A DNA stretch of 64,000 bases, taken from NCBI GenBank assembly GCA_037443605.1, contig JBBIOA010000017.1, forward strand, positions 20,739 through 84,738, in the 5' to 3' direction. The translations under genes were made by a program, and so were the position numbers. This DNA is from Terriglobales bacterium. GTDB lineage: Bacteria > Acidobacteriota > Terriglobia > Terriglobales > Acidobacteriaceae. Shown one piece after another: positions 2,736 through 48,890 of the stretch (positions are counted from its first letter, which is position 1; every line of letters begins with the position of its first letter). A model generated the notes under the pieces. It made no database searches and was not told the DNA's origin. It worked only from the letters and a program-made list of their open reading frames with translations.

Positions 2736-3178
2736 TCTCCCTCCACCATCCGGTCTTGCGTCAGCAGGCCAATGCGGTCCACGCCTGCATGGTGGGCCAC
2801 GTCGATGACTTCGGCGACGTACTGAAAGTCGACATCCTTGTCGCCGCGGACGAACGCTACTTTCTCGGCGCGCGTCAGGTAGATGCGGGAAAGGCGCTCG
2901 TACAGGTCATCCCATCGGACATCCTCGCGATTGATCTTCACCACTGGCGACTGATCTTTTCCGGTCCAAGCCACCTCGATGACGACAGTACGCACGGGAG
3001 GCGGAGCGTTTGCAGTCTGCTTCTGATCGGGCTGCGGGATTTGCGTCTTTTCTTGATATTCCTTGTCCATGGAGACGACGACCATGAACACGACGATCAG
3101 CGTAAGCAGCACGTCGATCAGCGGGGTGACATTGATTTGAGGCCGGGACGGGCCTCCGCCTGCCATGGAGAACGCCAT
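2732..3178 (-). CDS. ExbD/TolR-family biopolymer transport protein (paralog 1)
   Basis: Has the N-terminal INVTPLIDVLLTLIVVFMVV signature and a C-terminal ...KVAFVRGDKDVDFQYVAEVIDVAHHAGVDRIGL typical of ExbD. Confidence 0.8.
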   Translation of the reverse strand: MAFSMAGGGPSRPQINVTPLIDVLLTLIVVFMVVVSMDKEYQEKTQIPQPDQKQTANAPPPVRTVVIEVAWTGKDQSPVVKINREDVRWDDLYERLSRIYLTRAEKVAFVRGDKDVDFQYVAEVIDVAHHAGVDRIGLLTQDRMVEGE

Positions 3179-3445
3179 AGTGTTTTGCTCCTCTCAGGCA
3201 CGCGTGTCTGGGAGATCAGACACCCGGACGGAGCGCGGAGTTCCCGCGAGCTGCATTTCGGCGAAACGACTTATTTTGTGCAGGCGAGATACTTCCGCGC
3301 GCTGGGGAAACGCGCGCGTTCGGGATGACGCCACATTCGCGGGTTCCTGCGAATTGGCCGCGGTTGCGCGTTTCTGCGAAAACCGTGCATGATGGAACCA
3401 GATGGTCGCGCGTGGTGTCGGGCGGCCAGAGAATGGCCCTTGCCC

Positions 3446-4252: not shown

Positions 4253-5509
4253 CTACTCGTAGCGCAAAGCTTCGACGGGATCCAGTTTCGACGCGCGCAG
4301 GGCAGGCACCAGGCCACTGATCACGCCCACGACCAGAAGCACGGCGGCGGATAGCGCCACGGTCATGAGCGAAATGCGCAGGTGGATGTCGCCCTGGCCG
4401 GAATCGTCTTCGAATAGCGGCCCCATCATGGGCAGAGTACCGACCGCCCACGAAATTATGTAGGAAAGCAACACTCCGATCGCTCCGCCGATCAGCATGA
4501 TCAGCAGCGTCTCGGCCAGGAATTGCAGCTTGATGTGGCGCTTGCGGGCGCCCAGGGCGCGACGAAGTCCGATCTCGCGAATGCGCTCGTCGACCGAGAC
4601 GAGCATGATGTTCATCACGCCGACGCCGCCGATACCCAGAGTTAATGTCCCGATAAACGTGAGCAGTACCTGCAAGCCGATGGTGAGCGCGTCAATGACC
4701 GGGCGGAATTCGTCGCGGCCGAACATTTGAAATGCCTTGGGATCGGTGGGCGAAAAGTTTTGCCGAGTGGCGACCGCCGCGAGTACCTGCGCCATGGCTT
4801 TCTTTTCGAACTGGGGAGCGATGGGCTCGAAGACCATGACGGCGGCGTAGCGAGTGTTCCACAAGTCGCCGGCAGCGGAGTAAGGGATCCAGGACGATTC
4901 GTCGTCGCTCGAAAAATAGTTGCTGAGCTGGATTTTGCGGGCCATCACGCCAATCACCGTGAAGCGAACGCCCGACACGAGGACCGTTTCGCCAACGGCG
5001 GGGCGGCCGCTGAATAGCTGCTCCTTCAACCGGCCACCGAGAAAGATCACGCGGCGGCGTTCCAGTTCATCTTCGGCATTGATCCATCGGCCTTCCGACG
5101 GGACTTCGTTACGCATCTCGCCATATTCGGGACAGACGCCGCGAACCGGAGCGGTGCCCACCATGCGGTCGCCATAGGCAATGCCGGGACGGCGAACGGT
5201 CTCGCGGCACACATGTTTCACGAGCGGAGCCGTCGCTTTCACCATGTCGATGTCTGCTTGCTCGATGACCACCTTCTTGCCGGCGCGCTGTCCGCCGGGT
5301 TGCTCGCTGGTTTGCTGCGGCCAGCAGATGACGACGCTCTTCCCGAAGGCATCGAAACCGTGGACCAGCACGCTGCGAAAACTGTTGCCGTAGGCGATGA
5401 GCAACGTCACCGTGGCAATGCCCCAGACAATGCCCAGCATGGTCAGCAGGCTGCGTGTGACGTTGCGCCTTAGCGCGATCCAGGCTTCGAAGATGATTTC
5501 AAACAACAT
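4253..5509 (-). CDS. ABC-transporter permease, MacB-like periplasmic core plus FtsX domain
   Basis: 418 aa. N-terminal TM (RSLLTMLGIVWGIATV), a large periplasmic domain, and a C-terminal 3-TM FtsX module with REIGLRRALGARKRHI. Confidence 0.8.
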   Translation of the reverse strand: MLFEIIFEAWIALRRNVTRSLLTMLGIVWGIATVTLLIAYGNSFRSVLVHGFDAFGKSVVICWPQQTSEQPGGQRAGKKVVIEQADIDMVKATAPLVKHVCRETVRRPGIAYGDRMVGTAPVRGVCPEYGEMRNEVPSEGRWINAEDELERRRVIFLGGRLKEQLFSGRPAVGETVLVSGVRFTVIGVMARKIQLSNYFSSDDESSWIPYSAAGDLWNTRYAAVMVFEPIAPQFEKKAMAQVLAAVATRQNFSPTDPKAFQMFGRDEFRPVIDALTIGLQVLLTFIGTLTLGIGGVGVMNIMLVSVDERIREIGLRRALGARKRHIKLQFLAETLLIMLIGGAIGVLLSYIISWAVGTLPMMGPLFEDDSGQGDIHLRISLMTVALSAAVLLVVGVISGLVPALRASKLDPVEALRYE

Positions 5510-5513
5510 GTTT

Positions 5514-5544
5514 CAAGGTTGCAAGGTTGAAAGGTTGCAAAGTT
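5514..5544. repeat. Octamer-like tandem repeat (AAGGTTGN)x4 in the spacer between the two permease genes
   Basis: Direct reading: caaggttgcaaggttgaaaggttgcaaagtt, ending 5 nt from the downstream permease start codon. No obvious Shine-Dalgarno sequence. Confidence 0.7.
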
Positions 5545-5592
5545 ATGGCTCAGGAATTCAACCGGCTCTACGATTACCAAGATGGCTCGACC

Positions 5593-19517: not shown

Positions 19518-20597
19518 CTAAACCGCGCTGGCGGCTTCCTGCTTGAGCTTTTCGGCCTGATAGTGCGTGACCAGCGCTTCGATGAGCGGCTGGAGTTTGC
19601 CGTCCATGACGGATTCAAGCTGATGGATCGTGAACCCGATGCGGTGATCGGTGAGCCGGTTCTGCGGGAAATTGTAGGTACGAATCTTCTCGCTGCGGTC
19701 GCCGGAGCCCACCATCGCTTTGCGCTCCTTTGCCAGGGCCTGCTGTTGCTTCTCCATTTCGATTTCGTAGAGGCGGGAGCGCAGCACGCGCATGCCTTTC
19801 TCGCGATTCTTGATCTGCGATTTCTCGTCCTGGCAGCTTACGACCGTGTTGGTCGGAATGTGCGTGATGCGAACCGCGGAGTAGGTGGTGTTGACCGACT
19901 GTCCTCCAGGACCCGAAGAGCAGAAGGTGTCGATGCGCAGGTCTTTGGCTTCAATCTTGATGTCGACGTCTTCGGCTTCGGGCAGCACCGCCACGGTGAC
20001 GGCGGAGGTGTGTACTCGCCCCTGCTGCTCGGTCGCGGGCACGCGCTGCACGCGGTGCACCCCGCTCTCGTACTTCAGTTGCGAGAACACGCGATTGCCT
20101 TCGATGATAGCGATGACTTCCTTCAGCCCGCCGGCCGACGATTCCGAAGACGAGAGCACTTCGACCTTCCAGCGCTGGGTTTCCGCGTACCGCGTATACA
20201 TGCGGAAGACTTCGGCCACAAAAAGCGTGGCCTCGTCCCCGCCAGTGCCGGCACGGATTTCCAGGATGACGTTCTTCTCGTCGTTGGGATCCTTGGGGAT
20301 GAGCAGGACTTTCAATTCCTCCTCAACCTTCAAGAGGCGCGCTTCGAGCTGGTTGAGCTCTTCCTGGGCGTAGGCGCGCATGTCGGGATCTTTTTCTTCG
20401 GCGACCATCGCTTTACTATCGGCGATGCCCTTGGTCAGATCCTTGTGCTCGCGATACTTGTCGACGATATCGGTGAGTTCAGCGTGGGCCTTGGCGGTCT
20501 TCTGGTATTTCGCCGAGTCGTTGATGATCTCCGGCGACGCCAGGGCTTTGGTCAGCTCTTCGTAGCGTGCTTCGATTTGGTCCAGGCGTTCAAACAT
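19518..20597 (-). CDS. prfA: Peptide chain release factor 1
   Basis: GGQ motif ([11 protein letters not shown]) and RF1-type P-x-T anticodon tripeptide ([13 protein letters not shown]). Typical N-terminus [15 protein letters not shown]. Confidence 0.95.
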
Positions 20598-20627
20598 CGT
20601 CGTCGGTCGTTAGTCGTCGGTCGTTGG
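20598..20627. repeat. Left 30-nt inverted-repeat arm of the four-helix-bundle cassette
   Basis: cgtcgtcggtcgttagtcgtcggtcgttgg, itself a tandem of GTCGTCGGTCGTT-like units. It abuts the prfA ATG (20597). Confidence 0.8.
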
Positions 20628-20637
20628 CCGTGCGCTT

Positions 20638-21003
20638 TCAGGCTGCCCTTTCAGCAATCGAGTTCATCAAGCTGTTCAGGCAGCGACCAATGGCGTCTGA
20701 CGACTCTAACAACTGTTTCCCTTCTTCCTGCGTTATGTATTGTAATTCCCGCGCGATCATTAGCTGGGTTTGGACCTCCAGCAGCGACCCTCGTGCGTGT
20801 AACAGAAAGCTTCTGAATTCGCGATCTGAGCGGTGTCCCTTGCCTTCCGCTATGTTGCTTGGTATCGAAACTGCGGCGCGTCGTAGCTGCTGGCTTAAGC
20901 CGTAGAGCTCATGCTTTGGGAAGTTGCCGGTCACGCGATAGACACCTATCGCGAACTTCATTGACTCCTGCCAAACGCGCAGATCCTTAAATGACGATGG
21001 CAT
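20638..21003 (-). CDS. Four-helix-bundle protein (23S rRNA intervening-sequence protein / Avd-like family)
   Basis: Start taken at MPSSFKDLRVWQ, preceded by GGAGGAATAAC. Family signature DLRVWQ...A..VY.....FP..E.YGL..QLRRAAVSIPSNIAEG...S..EF..FL..A.GSL.E..TQL. Confidence 0.85.
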   Translation of the reverse strand: MPSSFKDLRVWQESMKFAIGVYRVTGNFPKHELYGLSQQLRRAAVSIPSNIAEGKGHRSDREFRSFLLHARGSLLEVQTQLMIARELQYITQEEGKQLLESSDAIGRCLNSLMNSIAERAA

Positions 21004-21047
21004 GTTATTCCTCCAGTCATCAACTGTAGGCGTCAAAGGCTGCAAGG

Positions 21048-21077
21048 CCAACGACTAACGACCATCGACGAACGACG
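21048..21077. repeat. Right 30-nt inverted-repeat arm of the four-helix-bundle cassette
   Basis: ccaacgactaacgaccatcgacgaacgacg. By hand alignment 24/30 positions are Watson-Crick complementary to the left arm (27/30 counting G-U in RNA). Confidence 0.8.
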
Positions 21078-21115
21078 CTTTTCCAAGTTGGGAATCGTAT
21101 TCGCGGAGGCACCCG

Positions 21116-22159
21116 CTACGCAATCACCAGTTCGCCACCCTGTTCCTTTTCGAGGGACATGGCTTGGTCGAGGGCTGCGATGGCGCACTGAGCCTGATCG
21201 TCGGTGGGCGCTTTGGTCGTGATGCGCTGCAGCCAAAGCCCGGGGGCGGTCATCAGGGCGAAAAGCGATCCGCGATGTTTGGCGGCAAAGCGGATGATCT
21301 CGTACGAAACTCCGGCGATGACCGGCAGCAGCACAATGCGTGAAGCGAAGCGTGCCCAGAAAGTCGTGTACGGAATCAGCATGTAGAAGCCGATCGAGAT
21401 CAGCATCACCGTCATCAGAAAGCTCGTCCCGCAACGCGGATGGTAGGTGGAATACTTCTGAACCGCGCCCACGTCGAGCGGATCGCCGTTCTCGAAGGCA
21501 AAGACTGTCTTGTGCTCGGCTCCGTGATACTCGTACACCCGGCGAATATCCTTCCACAGCGAAACTCCCCAGATAAAGAACAGGAACAATCCTAGCCGGA
21601 TGGCGCCGTCGACCAGGTTGAACACGATGCGCCCGCCGAGCGCCGGGTCAACCTTCTTAAGTTCCGTTGCCGCCAGCAGGGGAACGTACTTGTACATGAA
21701 AATGAAGAAAGCCAGCGAGATGATCAGATTGAAGATCGCCATCCAGTTGCTGATGGTGGCGGCTTTTTCGCGGCTCTCGGCCGTGGCCGGCTTTGGCTGC
21801 GCAGGTGCGGACTTGGATCCATCCGCCGCCGTTTCGTCCATCATGTCTTCAATGGCCACGTTTGCGGAAAAACGGAGCGCCCGGTAGCCCAGATTCATGG
21901 CGTATCCCAGGGTCATGACGCCGCGCACGATCGGCCACGCCATCCACCTATGCTTCTCGGATGGACGCTCGAGCGGTTCGCTCATGGTGACGACCTCACC
22001 CGAGGGCTTGCGGCACGCGATGGCCCAGGCGTGCGGCGAACGCATCATCACGCCTTCGAGAACGGCCTGGCCGCCGACCAGGGTCTCCTCCCCGCTCTCC
22101 AGCGCAGGCAACAACTGGACCGCAGCGAGAAACTTCAGATAATTCCGCAGGACGCGCAC
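21116..22159 (-). CDS. DUF1385-family membrane protein
   Basis: N-terminal soluble part LVGGQAVLEGVMMRSPHAWAIACRKPSGEVV, followed by multiple TM helices and YHGAEHK / YHPRCGTSF motifs typical of DUF1385. Confidence 0.8.
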   Translation of the reverse strand: MRVLRNYLKFLAAVQLLPALESGEETLVGGQAVLEGVMMRSPHAWAIACRKPSGEVVTMSEPLERPSEKHRWMAWPIVRGVMTLGYAMNLGYRALRFSANVAIEDMMDETAADGSKSAPAQPKPATAESREKAATISNWMAIFNLIISLAFFIFMYKYVPLLAATELKKVDPALGGRIVFNLVDGAIRLGLFLFFIWGVSLWKDIRRVYEYHGAEHKTVFAFENGDPLDVGAVQKYSTYHPRCGTSFLMTVMLISIGFYMLIPYTTFWARFASRIVLLPVIAGVSYEIIRFAAKHRGSLFALMTAPGLWLQRITTKAPTDDQAQCAIAALDQAMSLEKEQGGELVIA

Positions 22160-22302: not shown

Positions 22303-24024
22303 ATGCAACGCCTGGCCTTGGCCTGCGAACAGGTCGCAGCCACCACAAAAAAGCTCGAGAAAACGGCGACCGTTGCCGGCTACCTGAAGTCGCGCACGGT
22401 GGAAGAGGCTGCGGTGTCGGCGATCTTCCTTTCGGGGCGGGCGTTTCCCGTCTGGGAGGAGACGACGCTGCAGATCGGCGGCCGGTCGCTTTGGCAGATT
22501 GTGGGCGAACTGGCGGGGCAGGACGAGAAGGCCCTCACCGCGGCGTATCGGCGTCTGGGCGATCTGGGGGCGGTTGCAGGGGATGTGCTGCCCGCGCAAT
22601 CGGGGCAGGGCCTGTTGATCCTCGAAGTTGCGGGCGCATTCCGGCAAATCGCGGCGGCTCGTGGGCCAGCAGTGAAAGCAACGCTCGTGCAGGATCTTCT
22701 CTCGCGCGCCACGCCGCTGGAAGCGAAGTACGTCATAAAGATCATGACCGGCGATCTTCGCATCGGATTGAAAGAGAGCCTGGTGGAAGAAGCGATTGCC
22801 AAAGCTTTTGCAGCGACGCTGCCGGAAGTGCAGCGCGCCAACATGCTGCTGGGCGATTTGGGCGAGACGCTGCGTCTGGCCTCGGCGGGCAAGCTCGCTG
22901 AGGCGGGGATGCGGCTGTTCCATCCCCTGGGATTCATGCTGGCAAGCCCGATTGCATCCGCCGAAGAAGGGCTGAGCTACTTTGCCGGCGCTGCCGTCGA
23001 GGACAAGTACGATGGCATTCGCGCGCAGGCGCATGTGAGCGAGGGCGAAGTGCGATTGTTCTCGCGCACCCGCGATGACATCAGCGAGTCGTTCCCGGAA
23101 TTGCTGGATGCGCTGGCTGGAATTCCGCAAGCGGCCATCCTCGATGGAGAGATTGTCGCGTGGGATGCCGCGGCAGGACGCGCCCGTCCTTTTAGCGTGC
23201 TGCAGCAGCGGCTGGGACGGAAGAAAGTCAGCGACAGGATTCTACGCGAGCTTCCGGTCGCGTTTCTGGTGTTTGACGTTTTGTACGCCGCCGGGGAACT
23301 GAGAATTGACCGTCCGTTGCGGGAGCGCGCGCAACTGCTGGACGAGTTGCTCACCTTGCCGCGAAGGGTCATTCACCACGGAGGCACAGAGGCACCGAGA
23401 AGAACCGGGCAAAGAGAATTGTGCTTCGGCGGTGAAAACGAAGTCGACGCGGCCCGCATCATCCGCGCGCCCGTATTCCAGGCTGCGTCCGCGGATGAGC
23501 TAGAAGAACTCTTCGGCGCCGCCCAGGAACGCGGCAACGAAGGGTTGATGATCAAGGACGCGAATTCAACCTACGCTCCCGGCAAGCGCGGCAAGGCGTG
23601 GCTGAAGATGAAGCGCGAACTGGCTACGCTCGACGTTGTCGTGACAGCAGTGGAGTATGGCCACGGCAAGCGGATCGGCGTATTGAGCGACTATACGTTC
23701 GCGGTGTGGGACCGGGATTCAAAGGCAGACGAAGCTCGCCTGGTGAACATCGGCAAAGCGTACTCGGGACTAACCGACGCCGAGATTGCCGAGATGACGC
23801 AGTGGTTCCTGGAGCACACAGTGGAAGATCAGGGATTCCGGCGGGTGGTCGAACCGAAGATCGTGCTGGAAGTAGCCTTCAACAACATGATGCGCTCCGA
23901 CCGCCACGAGAGCGGCTACGCGCTGCGTTTCCCCAGAATCGTCCGACTGCGGCCAGACAAGTCGGCGGAAGAGGCAGATACGATCGAGCGAGCGCGGGAG
24001 ATCTACGCGCGACAAACCCTGTAG
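22303..24024 (+). CDS. ATP-dependent DNA ligase (DBD + adenylation + OB, LigB/Lig1-like)
   Basis: Motif I KYDGIRAQ, EGLMIKD, GKRGKAWLKMKRE, and C-terminal OB with LRFPRIVRLRPDK. Confidence 0.9.
   Translation: MQRLALACEQVAATTKKLEKTATVAGYLKSRTVEEAAVSAIFLSGRAFPVWEETTLQIGGRSLWQIVGELAGQDEKALTAAYRRLGDLGAVAGDVLPAQSGQGLLILEVAGAFRQIAAARGPAVKATLVQDLLSRATPLEAKYVIKIMTGDLRIGLKESLVEEAIAKAFAATLPEVQRANMLLGDLGETLRLASAGKLAEAGMRLFHPLGFMLASPIASAEEGLSYFAGAAVEDKYDGIRAQAHVSEGEVRLFSRTRDDISESFPELLDALAGIPQAAILDGEIVAWDAAAGRARPFSVLQQRLGRKKVSDRILRELPVAFLVFDVLYAAGELRIDRPLRERAQLLDELLTLPRRVIHHGGTEAPRRTGQRELCFGGENEVDAARIIRAPVFQAASADELEELFGAAQERGNEGLMIKDANSTYAPGKRGKAWLKMKRELATLDVVVTAVEYGHGKRIGVLSDYTFAVWDRDSKADEARLVNIGKAYSGLTDAEIAEMTQWFLEHTVEDQGFRRVVEPKIVLEVAFNNMMRSDRHESGYALRFPRIVRLRPDKSAEEADTIERAREIYARQTL
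23374..23399 (+). repeat. Family-E repeat core (CACCACnGAGGnCACAGAGG..ACCGAG) embedded in-frame in the ligase gene
   Basis: caccacggaggcacagaggcaccgag versus the reverse complement of the intergenic copy at 46753-46780, caccacagaggacacagaggaaaccgag. About 24/26 match with small gaps, by hand. Confidence 0.55.
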
Positions 24025-44330: not shown

Positions 44331-44415
44331 CTCGAGTTTCCGGTTTCCAGTTTCGAGTGACGAGGACGGAATCAGCAGAAGTGCCTGTCCGAAACCTGAA
44401 ACTCGAAACCTGAAA
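44331..44415. repeat. Family-D composite inverted repeat of GTTTCnnG / CnnGAAAC units
   Basis: Left arm ctcgagtttccggtttccagtttcgag and right arm ccgaaacctgaaactcgaaacctgaaac, about 30 nt apart, filling the manC/PMM spacer. Confidence 0.6.
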
Positions 44416-45525
44416 CTAAGTCAATTTGTGCAGCTTCTTTTCATCCAGATGTTTCACCACTTTGCCCACATCCTGCGCGTGTTGCCGCGTGGTAATCAGC
44501 AGCGCGTCCGGCGTTTCCACCACCACGAGATCGCTTACGCCCACCGCCGCCACAAACTTCCCCGGCGCATGCACGTAGTTCCCGCGCGCGTTCAGTAGAA
44601 ACATTCCCGTCCCCGCGATCAAGTTACCTTCCGGCGGACTGCTCTTGGCCGTGTGGTGCTCGTGCAGCGCGGTCCAGGACCCAAGATCGTTCCAGCCGAA
44701 ATCCGCCGGCAGGCAGAAAATGTTTCCGCGGAACTCGCCCTTCGCCGACCGCGGCTCCAGCACCGCGTAGTCCACGCTGATGTTCTCGCACTTGGGATAC
44801 AGTTTGCGGAAGGTTGCCGCAAACTTGCGTGTGCCGAACGCTGCCGCAATTTCTTCCAGCAACGGCGCGGTCTTCGGCAGATGTTCCTTCAGCGCATTCG
44901 CCAGCGTGCGGGCGCTCCACAGGAACATGCCGCTGTTCCAGAAGTAATTTCCCGCTGCCACGAACTCGGCGGCCTTCGCGGCGTCCGGCTTCTCGGTGAA
45001 CCGCCGTACTCGCAGCACGTCACCTTCAACCGCGCTCCCCGCCTCGATGTATCCGTACCCGGTTTCGGCGCGATTCGGGCGGATGCCGAGCACGACAATG
45101 TTCTCTCCCGCCGCCGCAAGCTCGACTCCCCGCGCAATCGTCTCGCGATAGCGCTTCTCATCGGCGATCACATGATCCGACGGAAACAATCCCAGCACCG
45201 CCTCGGGATCTTCGCGTAGCAACAGGAACGCCGCCAGCCCGATCGCCGGTGCTGTATTCCGCCCCATCGGCTCGGCGAGCACCTGCGCTTTCGGCAGCTT
45301 CGGCAGTTGTTTCGTGATGGCCAGCCGCAGATCGTCGTTGGTGATGATCCAGAACTTCTTCGCCGAAGCCAGCGGCAAGAGCCGCCCCACGGTCTGCTGG
45401 ATCATCGTCTGCTTGCCGTCAAGCGCCAGCAACTGCTTTGCCCGCTTCCTGCGGCTCAGCGGCCAGAAGCGCGTTCCGCGCCCTCCCGCCAGAATTACCG
45501 GATAGAAATTTGTGTTCTTCGCCAC
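44416..45525 (-). CDS. manC: Mannose-1-phosphate guanylyltransferase (no fused PMI domain)
   Basis: YPVILAGGRGTRFWPLSRRKRAKQLL N-terminal NTP-transferase signature. 369 aa. Confidence 0.8.
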   Translation of the reverse strand: MAKNTNFYPVILAGGRGTRFWPLSRRKRAKQLLALDGKQTMIQQTVGRLLPLASAKKFWIITNDDLRLAITKQLPKLPKAQVLAEPMGRNTAPAIGLAAFLLLREDPEAVLGLFPSDHVIADEKRYRETIARGVELAAAGENIVVLGIRPNRAETGYGYIEAGSAVEGDVLRVRRFTEKPDAAKAAEFVAAGNYFWNSGMFLWSARTLANALKEHLPKTAPLLEEIAAAFGTRKFAATFRKLYPKCENISVDYAVLEPRSAKGEFRGNIFCLPADFGWNDLGSWTALHEHHTAKSSPPEGNLIAGTGMFLLNARGNYVHAPGKFVAAVGVSDLVVVETPDALLITTRQHAQDVGKVVKHLDEKKLHKLT

Positions 45526-46746: not shown

Positions 46747-46760
46747 TGCCGACTCGGTTT

Positions 46761-46778
46761 CCTCTGTGTCCTCTGTGG
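46761..46778 (-). repeat. Family-E repeat core, tandem (CCTCTGTGT/CCTCTGTGG; reverse complement CACAGAGG x2)
   Basis: cctctgtgtcctctgtgg lies adjacent to the terminator. The same core occurs inside the ligase gene (23374-23399). Confidence 0.6.
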
Positions 46779-48576: not shown

Positions 48577-48864
48577 AGAAGATTTTATGCGGGCAGGAGA
48601 GGGATGGCAATCGAGGATTTGCCGCAAGAGAGCTGGGGACAGCCGTGAACATGTGGGGACAGCCGCCCCCGGCTGTCCAGTCGAGCAAAGCTCGACGGCA
48701 ACTGCGGCGTACGACTACAGCGACAGAAGATTTTATGCGGGCAGGAGAGGGATGGCAATCGAGGATTAGCCGCGAGAGAGCTGGCCACCCGCCGTGAACA
48801 TGTGGGGACAGCCGCCCCCGGCTGTCCAGTCGAGCGAAGCTCGACGGCAAATGCGGCGTACGAC
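48577..48864 (+). repeat. Two tandem copies of a ~148-bp composite unit, each containing a family-A hairpin module
   Basis: The unit starts agaagattttatgcgggcaggagagggatggcaatcgaggatt... at 48577 and again at 48725. Family-A cores lie at 48650-48696 and 48799-48845. The copies differ at a handful of positions and one 1-nt indel. Confidence 0.85.
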
Positions 48865-48890
48865 TTAGAGGAATCGCCGGGCGGAACGCG

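Follow-up and report, generated by a model that had tools for sequence, protein, structure and literature searches.

Why does a small four-helix-bundle gene, bracketed by inverted repeats, sit directly against the start codon of prfA, the gene for release factor 1 (RF1), and what kind of element is it? The gene lies in a 64,000-nucleotide (64-kb) window of Terriglobales contig JBBIOA010000017.1 and belongs to the protein family of rRNA intervening sequences (IVSs), for which reason we call it IVP; all coordinates below are those of the window, its features lie on the minus strand unless stated otherwise, and L-numbers denote the loci with which it was compared. On balance, and with modest confidence, we read the 480-bp segment that holds this gene as an open reading frame (ORF)-bearing hairpin cassette of the IVS type carried in an mRNA, one that would be ancient, processed at its stem, and built with an arm design found throughout its protein family. 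To our knowledge, IVSs have been regarded as an oddity of rRNA genes, and their ORF has gone 30 years without an assigned function.

Complementary heptad arrays enclose a single gene

The cassette occupies the junction between a DUF1385 gene (21116-22159; Pfam PF07136, E=6e-79), which ends in TAG, and prfA (19518-20597; Pfam PCRF and RF-1). A spacer of 38 nt separates the upstream gene from the 5' arm (core CGTCGTTCGTCGATGGTCGTTAGTCGTTGG, 21077-21048), a 44-nt leader with the Shine-Dalgarno (SD) sequence GGAGG (21014-21010, by sequence reading) precedes the IVP gene (20638-21003; coding 21003-20641, 121 aa; stop TGA at 20640-20638), and the 3' arm begins 10 nt after the IVP stop (core CCAACGACCGACGACTAACGACCGACGACG, 20627-20598). 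The prfA ATG at 20597 is the very next base after this arm; its position is fixed by an in-frame TAA five codons upstream, and sequence reading finds no SD before it. An earlier sequence-only reading of the stretch had described this layout, with arms enclosing nothing but a 121-aa four-helix-bundle ORF with a strong SD of its own, and every detail of it was borne out on the minus strand.

Direct reading of the two cores reproduced the complementarity counted at that time, with 24 of 30 positions Watson-Crick (WC) and three more G-U. The arms lengthened to 41 nt at 78% in a repeat search (21042-21082 and 20593-20633), and a scoring-blind ungapped scan, which replaced RNAduplex after the latter over-extended the duplex on long flanks, gave 36 complementary nucleotides (29 WC, 3 G-U) with a score of 18.5, a value that neither 100 dinucleotide-shuffled versions of the flanks (10.5 at most) nor the flanking sequences of 50 further long ORFs from the window (11.5 at most) reached. 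This growth to 36-41 nt comes from a palindromic GGCC at the inner ends together with a few outer pairs. What the first reading had missed is that each arm consists of about four heptads in tandem, GTCGTTN in the 5' arm and NAACGAC in the 3' arm: the 5' core reads CGTCGTT CGTCGAT GGTCGTT AGTCGTT and then GG, with the CC of the inner GGCC at 21047-21046, and the 3' core reads CC followed by AACGACC GACGACT AACGACC GACGACG. The 5' arm is G/U-rich and the 3' arm A/C-rich, and it is where one heptad meets the next that the stem of the window has its mismatches.

Folding supported the pairing as well. The long stem was present in both the minimum free energy and the centroid structure of a 561-nt fold, the arms alone formed a duplex of -53.1 kcal/mol, and pair probabilities along the stem were 0.68-0.92 in a 741-nt context, in which positions -20 to -1 of prfA were almost fully paired, with unpaired probabilities near 0.

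The element resembles an ORF-bearing IVS, in that terminal inverted repeats form a long stem around an ORF and carry tandem heptamers, four per arm, yet it departs from one in location, since there is no rRNA match in the window and the cassette does not occupy the known 23S sites (helix 9, 25 or 45). It also has the makeup of the intergenic heptamer arrays (short tandemly repeated repetitive sequences, STRR; GGGAATC; TAACTGA), with at least three tandem units and a 3' array abutting the SD-less prfA ATG. Both the arms and the IVP gene are single-copy within the 64 kb, and PADLOC matched no defence-system component.

The arm design recurs across the PF05635 family

Plasmids searched by tblastn yielded PF05635 genes in Cyanobacteriota, Bacteroidota, Gemmatimonadota and Alphaproteobacteria, and 11 of the 14 loci fetched had flank complementarity above that of all 100 shuffles. 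The best periodicity was mostly 7 nt, with 8 nt in three loci, and the repeat units were mutually unrelated: AGTAGGG in Nostoc edaphicum, GGAGATAA in Picosynechococcus, GGAGGGCA in Gemmatirosa, AAGGTTC in Riemerella, GGTGACA in Anabaena 90, GGCAGAA in Stanieria, AAGGGAA in Geminocystis and a GGGGAGA-like unit in Leptolyngbya. The IVP ORF of Azospirillum lipoferum (L083) lies inside large-subunit rRNA (RF02541, 2529 bits), which makes it a bona fide 23S IVS, and its arms hold CAGAGGA/CGGAGGA heptads with lag-7 periodicity on both flanks. A sample from IMG/VR extended the pattern further, with 25 of 41 distinct loci scoring at least 14, nearly all of them periodic at lag 7 on both flanks and again with other heptads, whereas none of 50 other ORFs in the window reached that score. 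Judged from these sequences, arms made of tandem heptads or octads characterise PF05635 genes as a family and are not a peculiarity of the prfA locus.

Within the cyanobacteria, the repeat unit followed the protein. The genes of Nostoc 7120 and Stanieria (the L086/L090 pair) share 79% protein identity and both have GGCAGAA, those of Calothrix and Pseudanabaena (L087/L088) share 72% and both have GCTAAAA, and other pairs share 25-45%. Protein similarity thus tracks repeat identity across cyanobacterial orders, which argues that the ORF and its arms are inherited as a unit.

This unit recurs at transcribed sites, namely rRNA, cas operons and the DUF1385-prfA operon. IVP genes with heptad or octad arrays lie in cas operons of Picosynechococcus (L082), Pseudanabaena (L088) and Anabaena 90 (L089), in the arrangements cas10/cmr2-IVP-cmr3 and, for L088, cas6-IVP-cas4, and an IVP gene was also found inside ribonucleotide reductase (RNR) operons elsewhere. 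IVP genes have been scored as cas-locus-associated (PMC3936711; PMC10910872), and our comparison suggests that cassettes settled in operons, and not a Cas function, may lie behind this published CRISPR association.

A long-standing resident of the junction in Terriglobales

With the IVP protein as query and one genome per GTDB species, we collected 80 related loci, nearly all from metagenome-assembled genomes of Acidobacteriota/Terriglobales; the best 120 protein homologues were all close relatives. The order DUF1385-IVP-prfA was present in 72 of the 80, a figure that says nothing on the share of genomes with a cassette, as the loci were found through IVP itself. The end of DUF1385 (...GGELVIA and the stop TAG) is identical in all 72 syntenic loci listed, and identity to the window among them is 60-79% for IVP, 84-92% for prfA and 70-87% for DUF1385. 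Pairwise identities of IVP correlated with those of prfA (rho 0.49) and DUF1385 (rho 0.52) in much the manner of the two host genes with each other (0.585), so that IVP divergence tracks host-gene divergence, as expected of mainly vertical descent.

The arms were conserved along with the gene. Of 81 loci (the 80 plus the window), 78 have 3-5 GTCGT heptads in tandem at a distance of 40-220 nt ahead of the IVP ATG, and 76 have 3-7 ACGAC units directly at the IVP stop or shortly after it; a complementary flank segment is present in all 81 (median 30 bp, 87.6% WC), scoring at least 14 in 78. Eight non-syntenic paralogues carry the same heptad arms, some of them at a second conserved site where IVP follows lipA and is itself followed by a convergent M13 peptidase gene (e.g. 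L062), and no rRNA context was found for the non-syntenic Terriglobales paralogues. Because the arms accompany the gene at these sites too, they belong to IVP and not to prfA.

Residence at the DUF1385-prfA junction since early in Terriglobales evolution, with mostly vertical inheritance, is the best explanation of these sequence comparisons. The sequence-only reading had proposed an IVS-like or mobile cassette interrupting an otherwise conserved operon. Its IVS-like half stands, given the architecture shared with IVSs of the Azospirillum type; the recent or mobile interruption falls away, as 72 of the 80 related loci have the cassette at the same junction and with the same arms.

Several smaller observations accompany these loci. 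GTCGTTN arrays also occur after the prfA stop in L044, L057, L058 and L072 (about 4450-4500 in those loci), and gene-less GTCGTTN/NAACGAC mini-hairpins follow other genes in L059 (620-730) and lie downstream of IVP in L074-L076; arrays at such sites point to an element dispersed in Terriglobales and not restricted to the IVP gene. Where the leader is long (L021-L060 and others), the stretch from the 5' arm to the SD holds a conserved box some 60-90 nt ahead of the IVP start codon; it reads GGTCATCCATCACATACA, or ATCACAATTTTCATG in a second subtype, and may act as a promoter or as an RNA motif. The non-syntenic IVP locus L078 is preceded by tandem nadA riboswitches (1586-1740; RF03013, 60.8 and 40.3 bits).

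Empty and remnant junctions

Gene-less junctions, for which the sequence-only reading had proposed a search, do exist. In metagenome contigs of the Joint Genome Institute (JGI) we looked for ATTGCNTAG, the conserved end of DUF1385, with the prfA start 1-31 or 32-62 nt further on. The flanking patterns match 46 of 73 occupied junctions, where the gaps are 485-612 nt, which shows that the scan was adequately sensitive. No tight junction with a gap of 1-31 nt was found in the JGI metagenomes, and the 32-62 nt range gave seven matches, one of them false (it carries IVP) and six true, which amount to five distinct junctions. Two of these (L095 and L100) have neither an IVP gene nor heptads, one (L096, identical to L101) keeps two 3'-arm heptads directly before the prfA ATG, one (L097) holds a gene-less mini-hairpin GTTGTCGTTCGCTGG...CCAAACGACCAACGAC, and one (L098) retains the 5' arm alone. 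Their DUF1385 sequences are 85-95% identical to those of occupied loci (95.5% between L098 and L025), and at such identity the empty junctions nest among occupied genomes. Since they do so, and since three of the five have arm remnants, they look like secondary losses by deletion. The existence of empty and remnant junctions further indicates that the cassette is a discrete, dispensable unit. As a separate observation, ATCACAC strings, similar to the conserved box of the long leaders, persist in some junctions that lack IVP (remnants in L096/L101 and L100).

The empty junctions also bear on the prfA start. That prfA lacks an SD, as had been noted, holds for the window, and the earlier reading had attributed this to the abutting arm; prfA is equally without a clear SD in both trace-free junctions (L095 and L100), so the arm is not the cause, and by this comparison the absent SD is a property of prfA in this clade.

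A conserved protein under purifying selection

The encoded protein is a member of PF05635 (E=1.6e-39, 134.8 bits, cut-off 33.8; profile positions 1-106 aligned to residues 6-111) and of TIGR02436, "four helix bundle protein" (129.5 bits, cut-off 24). Its closest solved relative is PDB 2GSC (XCC0516 of Xanthomonas; E=2.9e-25, residues 8-120), with a further match to 2RLD (E=1.3e-4), and XCC0516 is described as a homopentameric toroid (PMC4990558). The motif (G)xxRxxxSxxxNxxE reported for XCC0516 homologues (PMC3936711) is present in IVP as R42-x3-S46-x3-N50-x2-E53, with Q39 in place of the first G; in a 12-sequence cross-phylum alignment S46, N50, E53 and G54 were invariant and R42 nearly so. 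The ORF length is kept at 330-375 nt in 71 of 81 loci and dN/dS among the related loci is about 0.09 (with dS saturated), from which we conclude that IVP is under purifying selection and the protein in use. It is basic, with a pI of 9.3.

IVP has some similarity to Avd, the accessory protein of diversity-generating retroelements (DGRs) (PF22296, E=1e-6; PHROG Avd, E=2.7e-8), with which it shares a fold superfamily, DGR Avd (bAvd) being a basic pentameric barrel and IVP presumably one as well. Identity as a DGR Avd was rejected: the score is 24.7 bits against the NF033474 equivalog cut-off of 80, and neither adjoining gene is a reverse transcriptase, the neighbours being DUF1385 and prfA here and likewise in the 72 relatives (template and variable repeats were not searched for). 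Autoregulation by RF1 through the IVP stop codon was also ruled out, because the stops are mostly the RF2-specific TGA (42 of 71, with 21 TAA and 8 TAG).

Proposed processing of the mRNA and the start of prfA

The stem suggests how such a cassette might live in an mRNA. In a read-through DUF1385-IVP-prfA transcript, the arms would pair across about 400 nt into a double-stranded stem of about 34-41 bp and bury the SD-less initiation region of prfA, both of which the folding energies support. By analogy with rRNA IVSs, RNase III probably cleaves this stem, and the cut would free an IVP message with paired ends, end the DUF1385 message and unmask the prfA start. The near-leaderless prfA message predicted earlier would not result, as a mid-stem cut would leave a leader of about 12-16 nt, SD-less and unpaired. 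Intercistronic RNase III stems are known from phage T7 early mRNAs, lambda N and E. coli adhE, where the start is occluded and cleavage separates messages and can activate translation; those are local hairpins, whereas the strands of the cassette lie about 400 nt apart and enclose a whole gene.

Transcripts from an internal promoter would, tentatively, lack the 5' arm and leave the starts of both IVP and prfA open. One candidate, TTGGCC (21051-21046) and TACAGT (21028-21023) with a 17-nt spacer, overlaps the inner end of the 5' arm, recurs as TTGGCC-N17-TAnAGT in 15 of 24 short-leader loci and matches 8 of 12 consensus positions; a sigma-70 consensus scan at a threshold of 9/12 found no promoter, and the sequence may be a weak one. 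Intrinsic terminators were represented by a single terminator-like site, inside prfA and on the other strand.

Other structures at the junction could also touch translation. The IVP SD pairs in relatives with an anti-SD, CCTCYC, directly after the 5' arm (a 6-bp helix with compensatory changes at one pair by RNAalifold on 19 short-leader sequences), and this pairing is weak in the window. In L061, L068 and L080 (about 3001-3420) the IVP ORF extends through the 3' arm (C-terminus ...ADDRRPTTDD*), with a stop codon that falls within the final heptad and leaves 5-8 nt to the prfA ATG, a layout that would amount to translational coupling able to open the stem; read-through of the 3' arm by IVP is what one would expect if stem opening matters for prfA initiation. 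Separately, a small conserved hairpin GGTTCCCAnnCTGGGAAACC stands between the DUF1385 stop and the 5' arm (window 21081-21094, with equivalents in L001-L020; weaker in the window), and its 3' half GGGAAACC can alternatively pair with GGTTCCC directly before the prfA ATG in several relatives. That pairing would extend the long stem to the start codon, which makes an alternative-structure switch possible.

Relation to known systems

The 23S IVSs that contain ORFs, in Leptospira, Coxiella burnetii (S23p), Brucella and Azospirillum, resemble the cassette in several ways: their terminal inverted repeats contain tandem heptamers and pair into a stem of about 28-36 bp, the loop of this stem holds a PF05635 ORF, and these IVSs lack a terminator of their own and travel on the host transcript. 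For the Coxiella IVS, three GACAGAT heptamers before the S23p start, RNase III cutting in the middle of a 28-bp stem, decay of the ORF and loss of the SD on cleavage have been described (PMC4990558). The cassette differs from this class in that its host transcript is the protein-coding DUF1385-prfA operon rather than 23S rRNA helix 45, and from the Coxiella IVS in that purifying selection acts on its ORF, which is preceded by a strong SD; excision of the cassette by RNase III is predicted by analogy.

Intergenic heptamers (cyanobacterial STRR, Xanthomonas GGGAATC, Nostoc GGGGAYT and Beggiatoaceae TAACTGA) likewise form lineage-specific intergenic arrays of 2-6 or more units, frequently paired in convergent inverted orientation and frequently placed immediately ahead of start codons that lack an SD, and differ in that the arrays of the Terriglobales cassette bracket a PF05635 gene. 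Xanthomonas has about 186 GGGAATC arrays with 70-75 convergent pairs, according to PMC4692102, whose supplement places array #15 (GGGAATC x4) between bccP (XCC0517) and XCC0516, overlapping the start codon of the latter, and XCC0516 is the crystallised member of the family. TAACTGA heptamers lie by SD-less starts in Beggiatoaceae, cyanobacteria and Bacteroidetes (PMC4679880). In the literature and paper passages searched we found no link between such repeats and PF05635 genes, though an unindexed source may hold one.

Repetitive extragenic palindromes (REP), their mosaic elements (BIMEs) and the associated tyrosine transposases (RAYT) offer a further parallel: a gene between inverted, short, species-specific repeats that also form gene-less pairs between operon genes, where they can shape mRNA processing and stability. 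The difference lies in the protein, as PF05635, a small four-helix bundle, is not a Y1 transposase and is not known to catalyse any reaction, and in the repeat, which is a tandem array of 7- or 8-mers at low copy number in the window rather than a palindrome of 20-40 nt.

Weighing the alternatives

A number of observations sit uneasily with a stem-processed cassette. The whole 561-nt fold has a modest z-score of -1.7, and Rfam gave nothing credible at E<=10 in 20300-21400 and no match at gathering score in the whole window. Within the order, the non-WC arm positions comprise 61 G-U, 87 A-C and 149 transversion mismatches, so there is no excess of G-U over A-C of the kind that pairing of the sense-strand RNA would leave; the arms are conserved there as sequence and not as covarying pairs, and covariation is visible only between phyla. 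Within the order, neither a G-U excess nor compensatory change points to selection at the RNA level, and inspection of the mismatches in the window's stem gave no sign of compensation. The Pseudanabaena galeata plasmid locus (L088) is an exception to the hairpin, having direct rather than inverted arrays (GCTAAAA x16 upstream and GCCAAAA x10 downstream of the IVP gene at 992-1351), and a few homologues (L093) have no arrays at all. Loss of the cassette is tolerated, which indicates that prfA expression is independent of it. A plain RNase III substrate needs no 7-nt periodicity, such that the 7- or 8-nt periodicity, the direct arrays of L088 and the tracking of protein by heptad go unexplained. 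On account of these gaps we retain a model of self-recognition, with the protein binding the repeats that flank its gene.

Under that model, which we entertain as a tentative second choice, the heptad arrays are cognate recognition sites of the IVP pentamer, on RNA or DNA and with perhaps one repeat per subunit, in a REP/RAYT-like manner; IVP would autoregulate or act on gene-less repeat pairs too, and arm complementarity would be a by-product of opposed orientation. Conservation of arm sequence rather than pairing within the order fits this, as do the lineage-specific heptads that follow protein similarity (the GGCAGAA and GCTAAAA pairs), arrays of usually about 4-5 units next to a pentameric closest structure, a basic protein (pI about 9) related to the nucleic-acid-binding DGR Avd, the gene-less hairpins of the same heptad in L059 and L074-L076, and L088, whose direct arrays fit binding and not a stem. 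The numerous Xanthomonas arrays (about 186, with some 70 convergent pairs and one on XCC0516 itself; PMC4692102) point the same way. However, binding by stand-alone PF05635 proteins is hypothetical, co-descent of ORF and arms as one unit accounts for the tracking equally well, both Terriglobales paralogues share one heptad, and the window holds AGTTTCC heptads and CCTTGMAA 8-mers with no cognate IVP gene within 64 kb. The most far-reaching version, also rather unlikely in our estimate, would make PF05635 proteins and inverted 7/8-nt arrays a cognate, co-inherited pair throughout bacteria, with the pentamer recognising its own repeats, the intergenic heptamers (STRR, Xanthomonas, Beggiatoaceae, Bacteroidota, Acidobacteriota) as gene-less members, 23S IVSs as cassettes landed in rRNA, and the CRISPR link as cassettes in cas operons.

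Somewhat more doubtful still is a purely translational device that acts without RNase III, in which the stem masks the SD-less prfA start until it is opened by ribosomes finishing IVP, whose stop lies 10 nt before the 3' arm, or is left open in internal-promoter transcripts, and in which the A/C-rich array would be an unstructured standby site. Such a role would suit the pairing of prfA positions -20 to -1, the IVP ORFs that run through the arm in L061, L068 and L080, the TAA that forms part of the first heptad in several loci, and the other SD-less genes of the window with arrays near their ATG (5511-5545 and 44335-44417); TAACTGA arrays by SD-less starts have been proposed as translational elements in Beggiatoaceae (PMC4679880). 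It does not account for the same arms at IVP paralogues with no co-directional gene downstream (L062) and at an IVS inside rRNA, which again assign the arms to the IVP cassette and not to prfA, nor for prfA being SD-less and presumably expressed in the trace-free junctions; and with IVP stops mostly RF2-specific, there would be no RF1 feedback.

We consider it improbable that the segment is a recently inserted mobile cassette (of the kind of a miniature inverted-repeat transposable element (MITE), a transposon or an integron) moving as DNA by its terminal inverted repeats. Movement of some sort would explain why the same arms and leader types appear at the lipA locus and the prfA junction, why presence is polymorphic, why near-identical cassettes occur in different cyanobacterial orders, and why the gene lies inside cas and RNR operons elsewhere. 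Against it, the cassette is at the same junction in 72 of 80 loci with IVP only 60-79% identical to that of the window and correlations of about 0.5 next to 0.585 for the host genes, three of the five empty junctions have deletion-like remnants, and the cassette has no transposase or integrase, no target-site duplication or other direct repeat at its arm ends, and one copy in the window. A "recent" insertion is largely refuted by these comparisons. Least credible of all, functionless microsatellites generated by slippage and lying on both sides of the gene by chance would fit the copy number of 3 to 7 among relatives and the over-representation of heptamer simple sequence repeats in bacteria (PMC4692102), but not the opposed orientation and complementarity kept in the 78 of 81 loci scoring at least 14, the recurrence across phyla with unrelated heptads (against 0 of 50 control ORFs), or the fixed position of the arrays relative to the ORF.

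If the segment is an IVS-type cassette in mRNA, as we favour, then a hairpin that encloses an ORF can persist stably within protein-coding operons, in this instance right at the start of an essential translation factor, with strong purifying selection acting on the protein it encodes. It would also turn three puzzles, the ORFs of 23S IVSs, the scattered "four helix bundle" genes (some of them CRISPR-linked) and the intergenic heptamers, into one testable object. Cleavage of the stem by RNase III, if it occurs, would make the cassette a self-insulating means of placing a gene in any transcript and would add a new class to the processing sites found inside operons; should the protein instead bind the repeats, the PF05635 family would have its first functional handle.

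Neighbouring genes and other repeats in the window

Downstream of prfA lie a DinB_2 gene (19478-19002) and prmC (18954-18097). Pfam agrees with the names given earlier to all four neighbours of the cassette (DUF1385, PCRF/RF-1 for prfA, DinB_2 for the dinB-like gene, and PrmC).

A gene-less hairpin at 44335-44417, recognised by Tandem Repeats Finder (TRF), sequence and folding, consists of (AGTTTCR)x4, a 31-nt loop and (YGAAACY)x3-4 and folds at -35 kcal/mol (z=-3.7/-3.05). It lies between a manC-like nucleotidyl-transferase gene (45525-44416) and a phosphoglucomutase/phosphomannomutase (PGM/PMM) gene (44326-42914), both assigned from ORFs and Pfam. Between the end of its 3' arm and the next ATG, which has no SD, there are 9 nt. 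The hairpin has the design of the cassette with a different heptad, and we regard it as related to the cassette without belonging to it. Tandem 8-nt units at 5511-5545 (read on the minus strand, CTTTGCAA CCTTTCAA CCTTGCAA CCTTGAAA) abut the ATG (5510) of an SD-less minus-strand gene, which we take from its N-terminus to be membrane permease-like; no inverted partner of this array was seen. Taken together, these two sites suggest that repeat arrays before start codons are a wider habit of the genome.

Three further repeats were noted. On the plus strand at 1341-1370, a CAACGAC-like array (CCAACGA CCGACGG CCAACAA CCAACGA C) with the unit of the IVP 3' arm lies in coding sequence just upstream of the GHPNVGKSTLLN P-loop, in a gene that is presumably der/engA-like by sequence reading, where the array apparently falls in the inter-domain linker. 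A 149-nt unit is repeated 1.9 times at 48577-48865 (94% identity, TRF score 520) and has a GC-rich palindrome GGGGACAGCCGCCCCCGGCTGTCC inside it. Another dispersed repeat family is possibly represented by CACAGAGG(N) units, which form short tandem runs at two sites, and by their reverse complement (TCCTCTGTG x2) at one more (1313-1330, 23377-23399 and 46760-46777).

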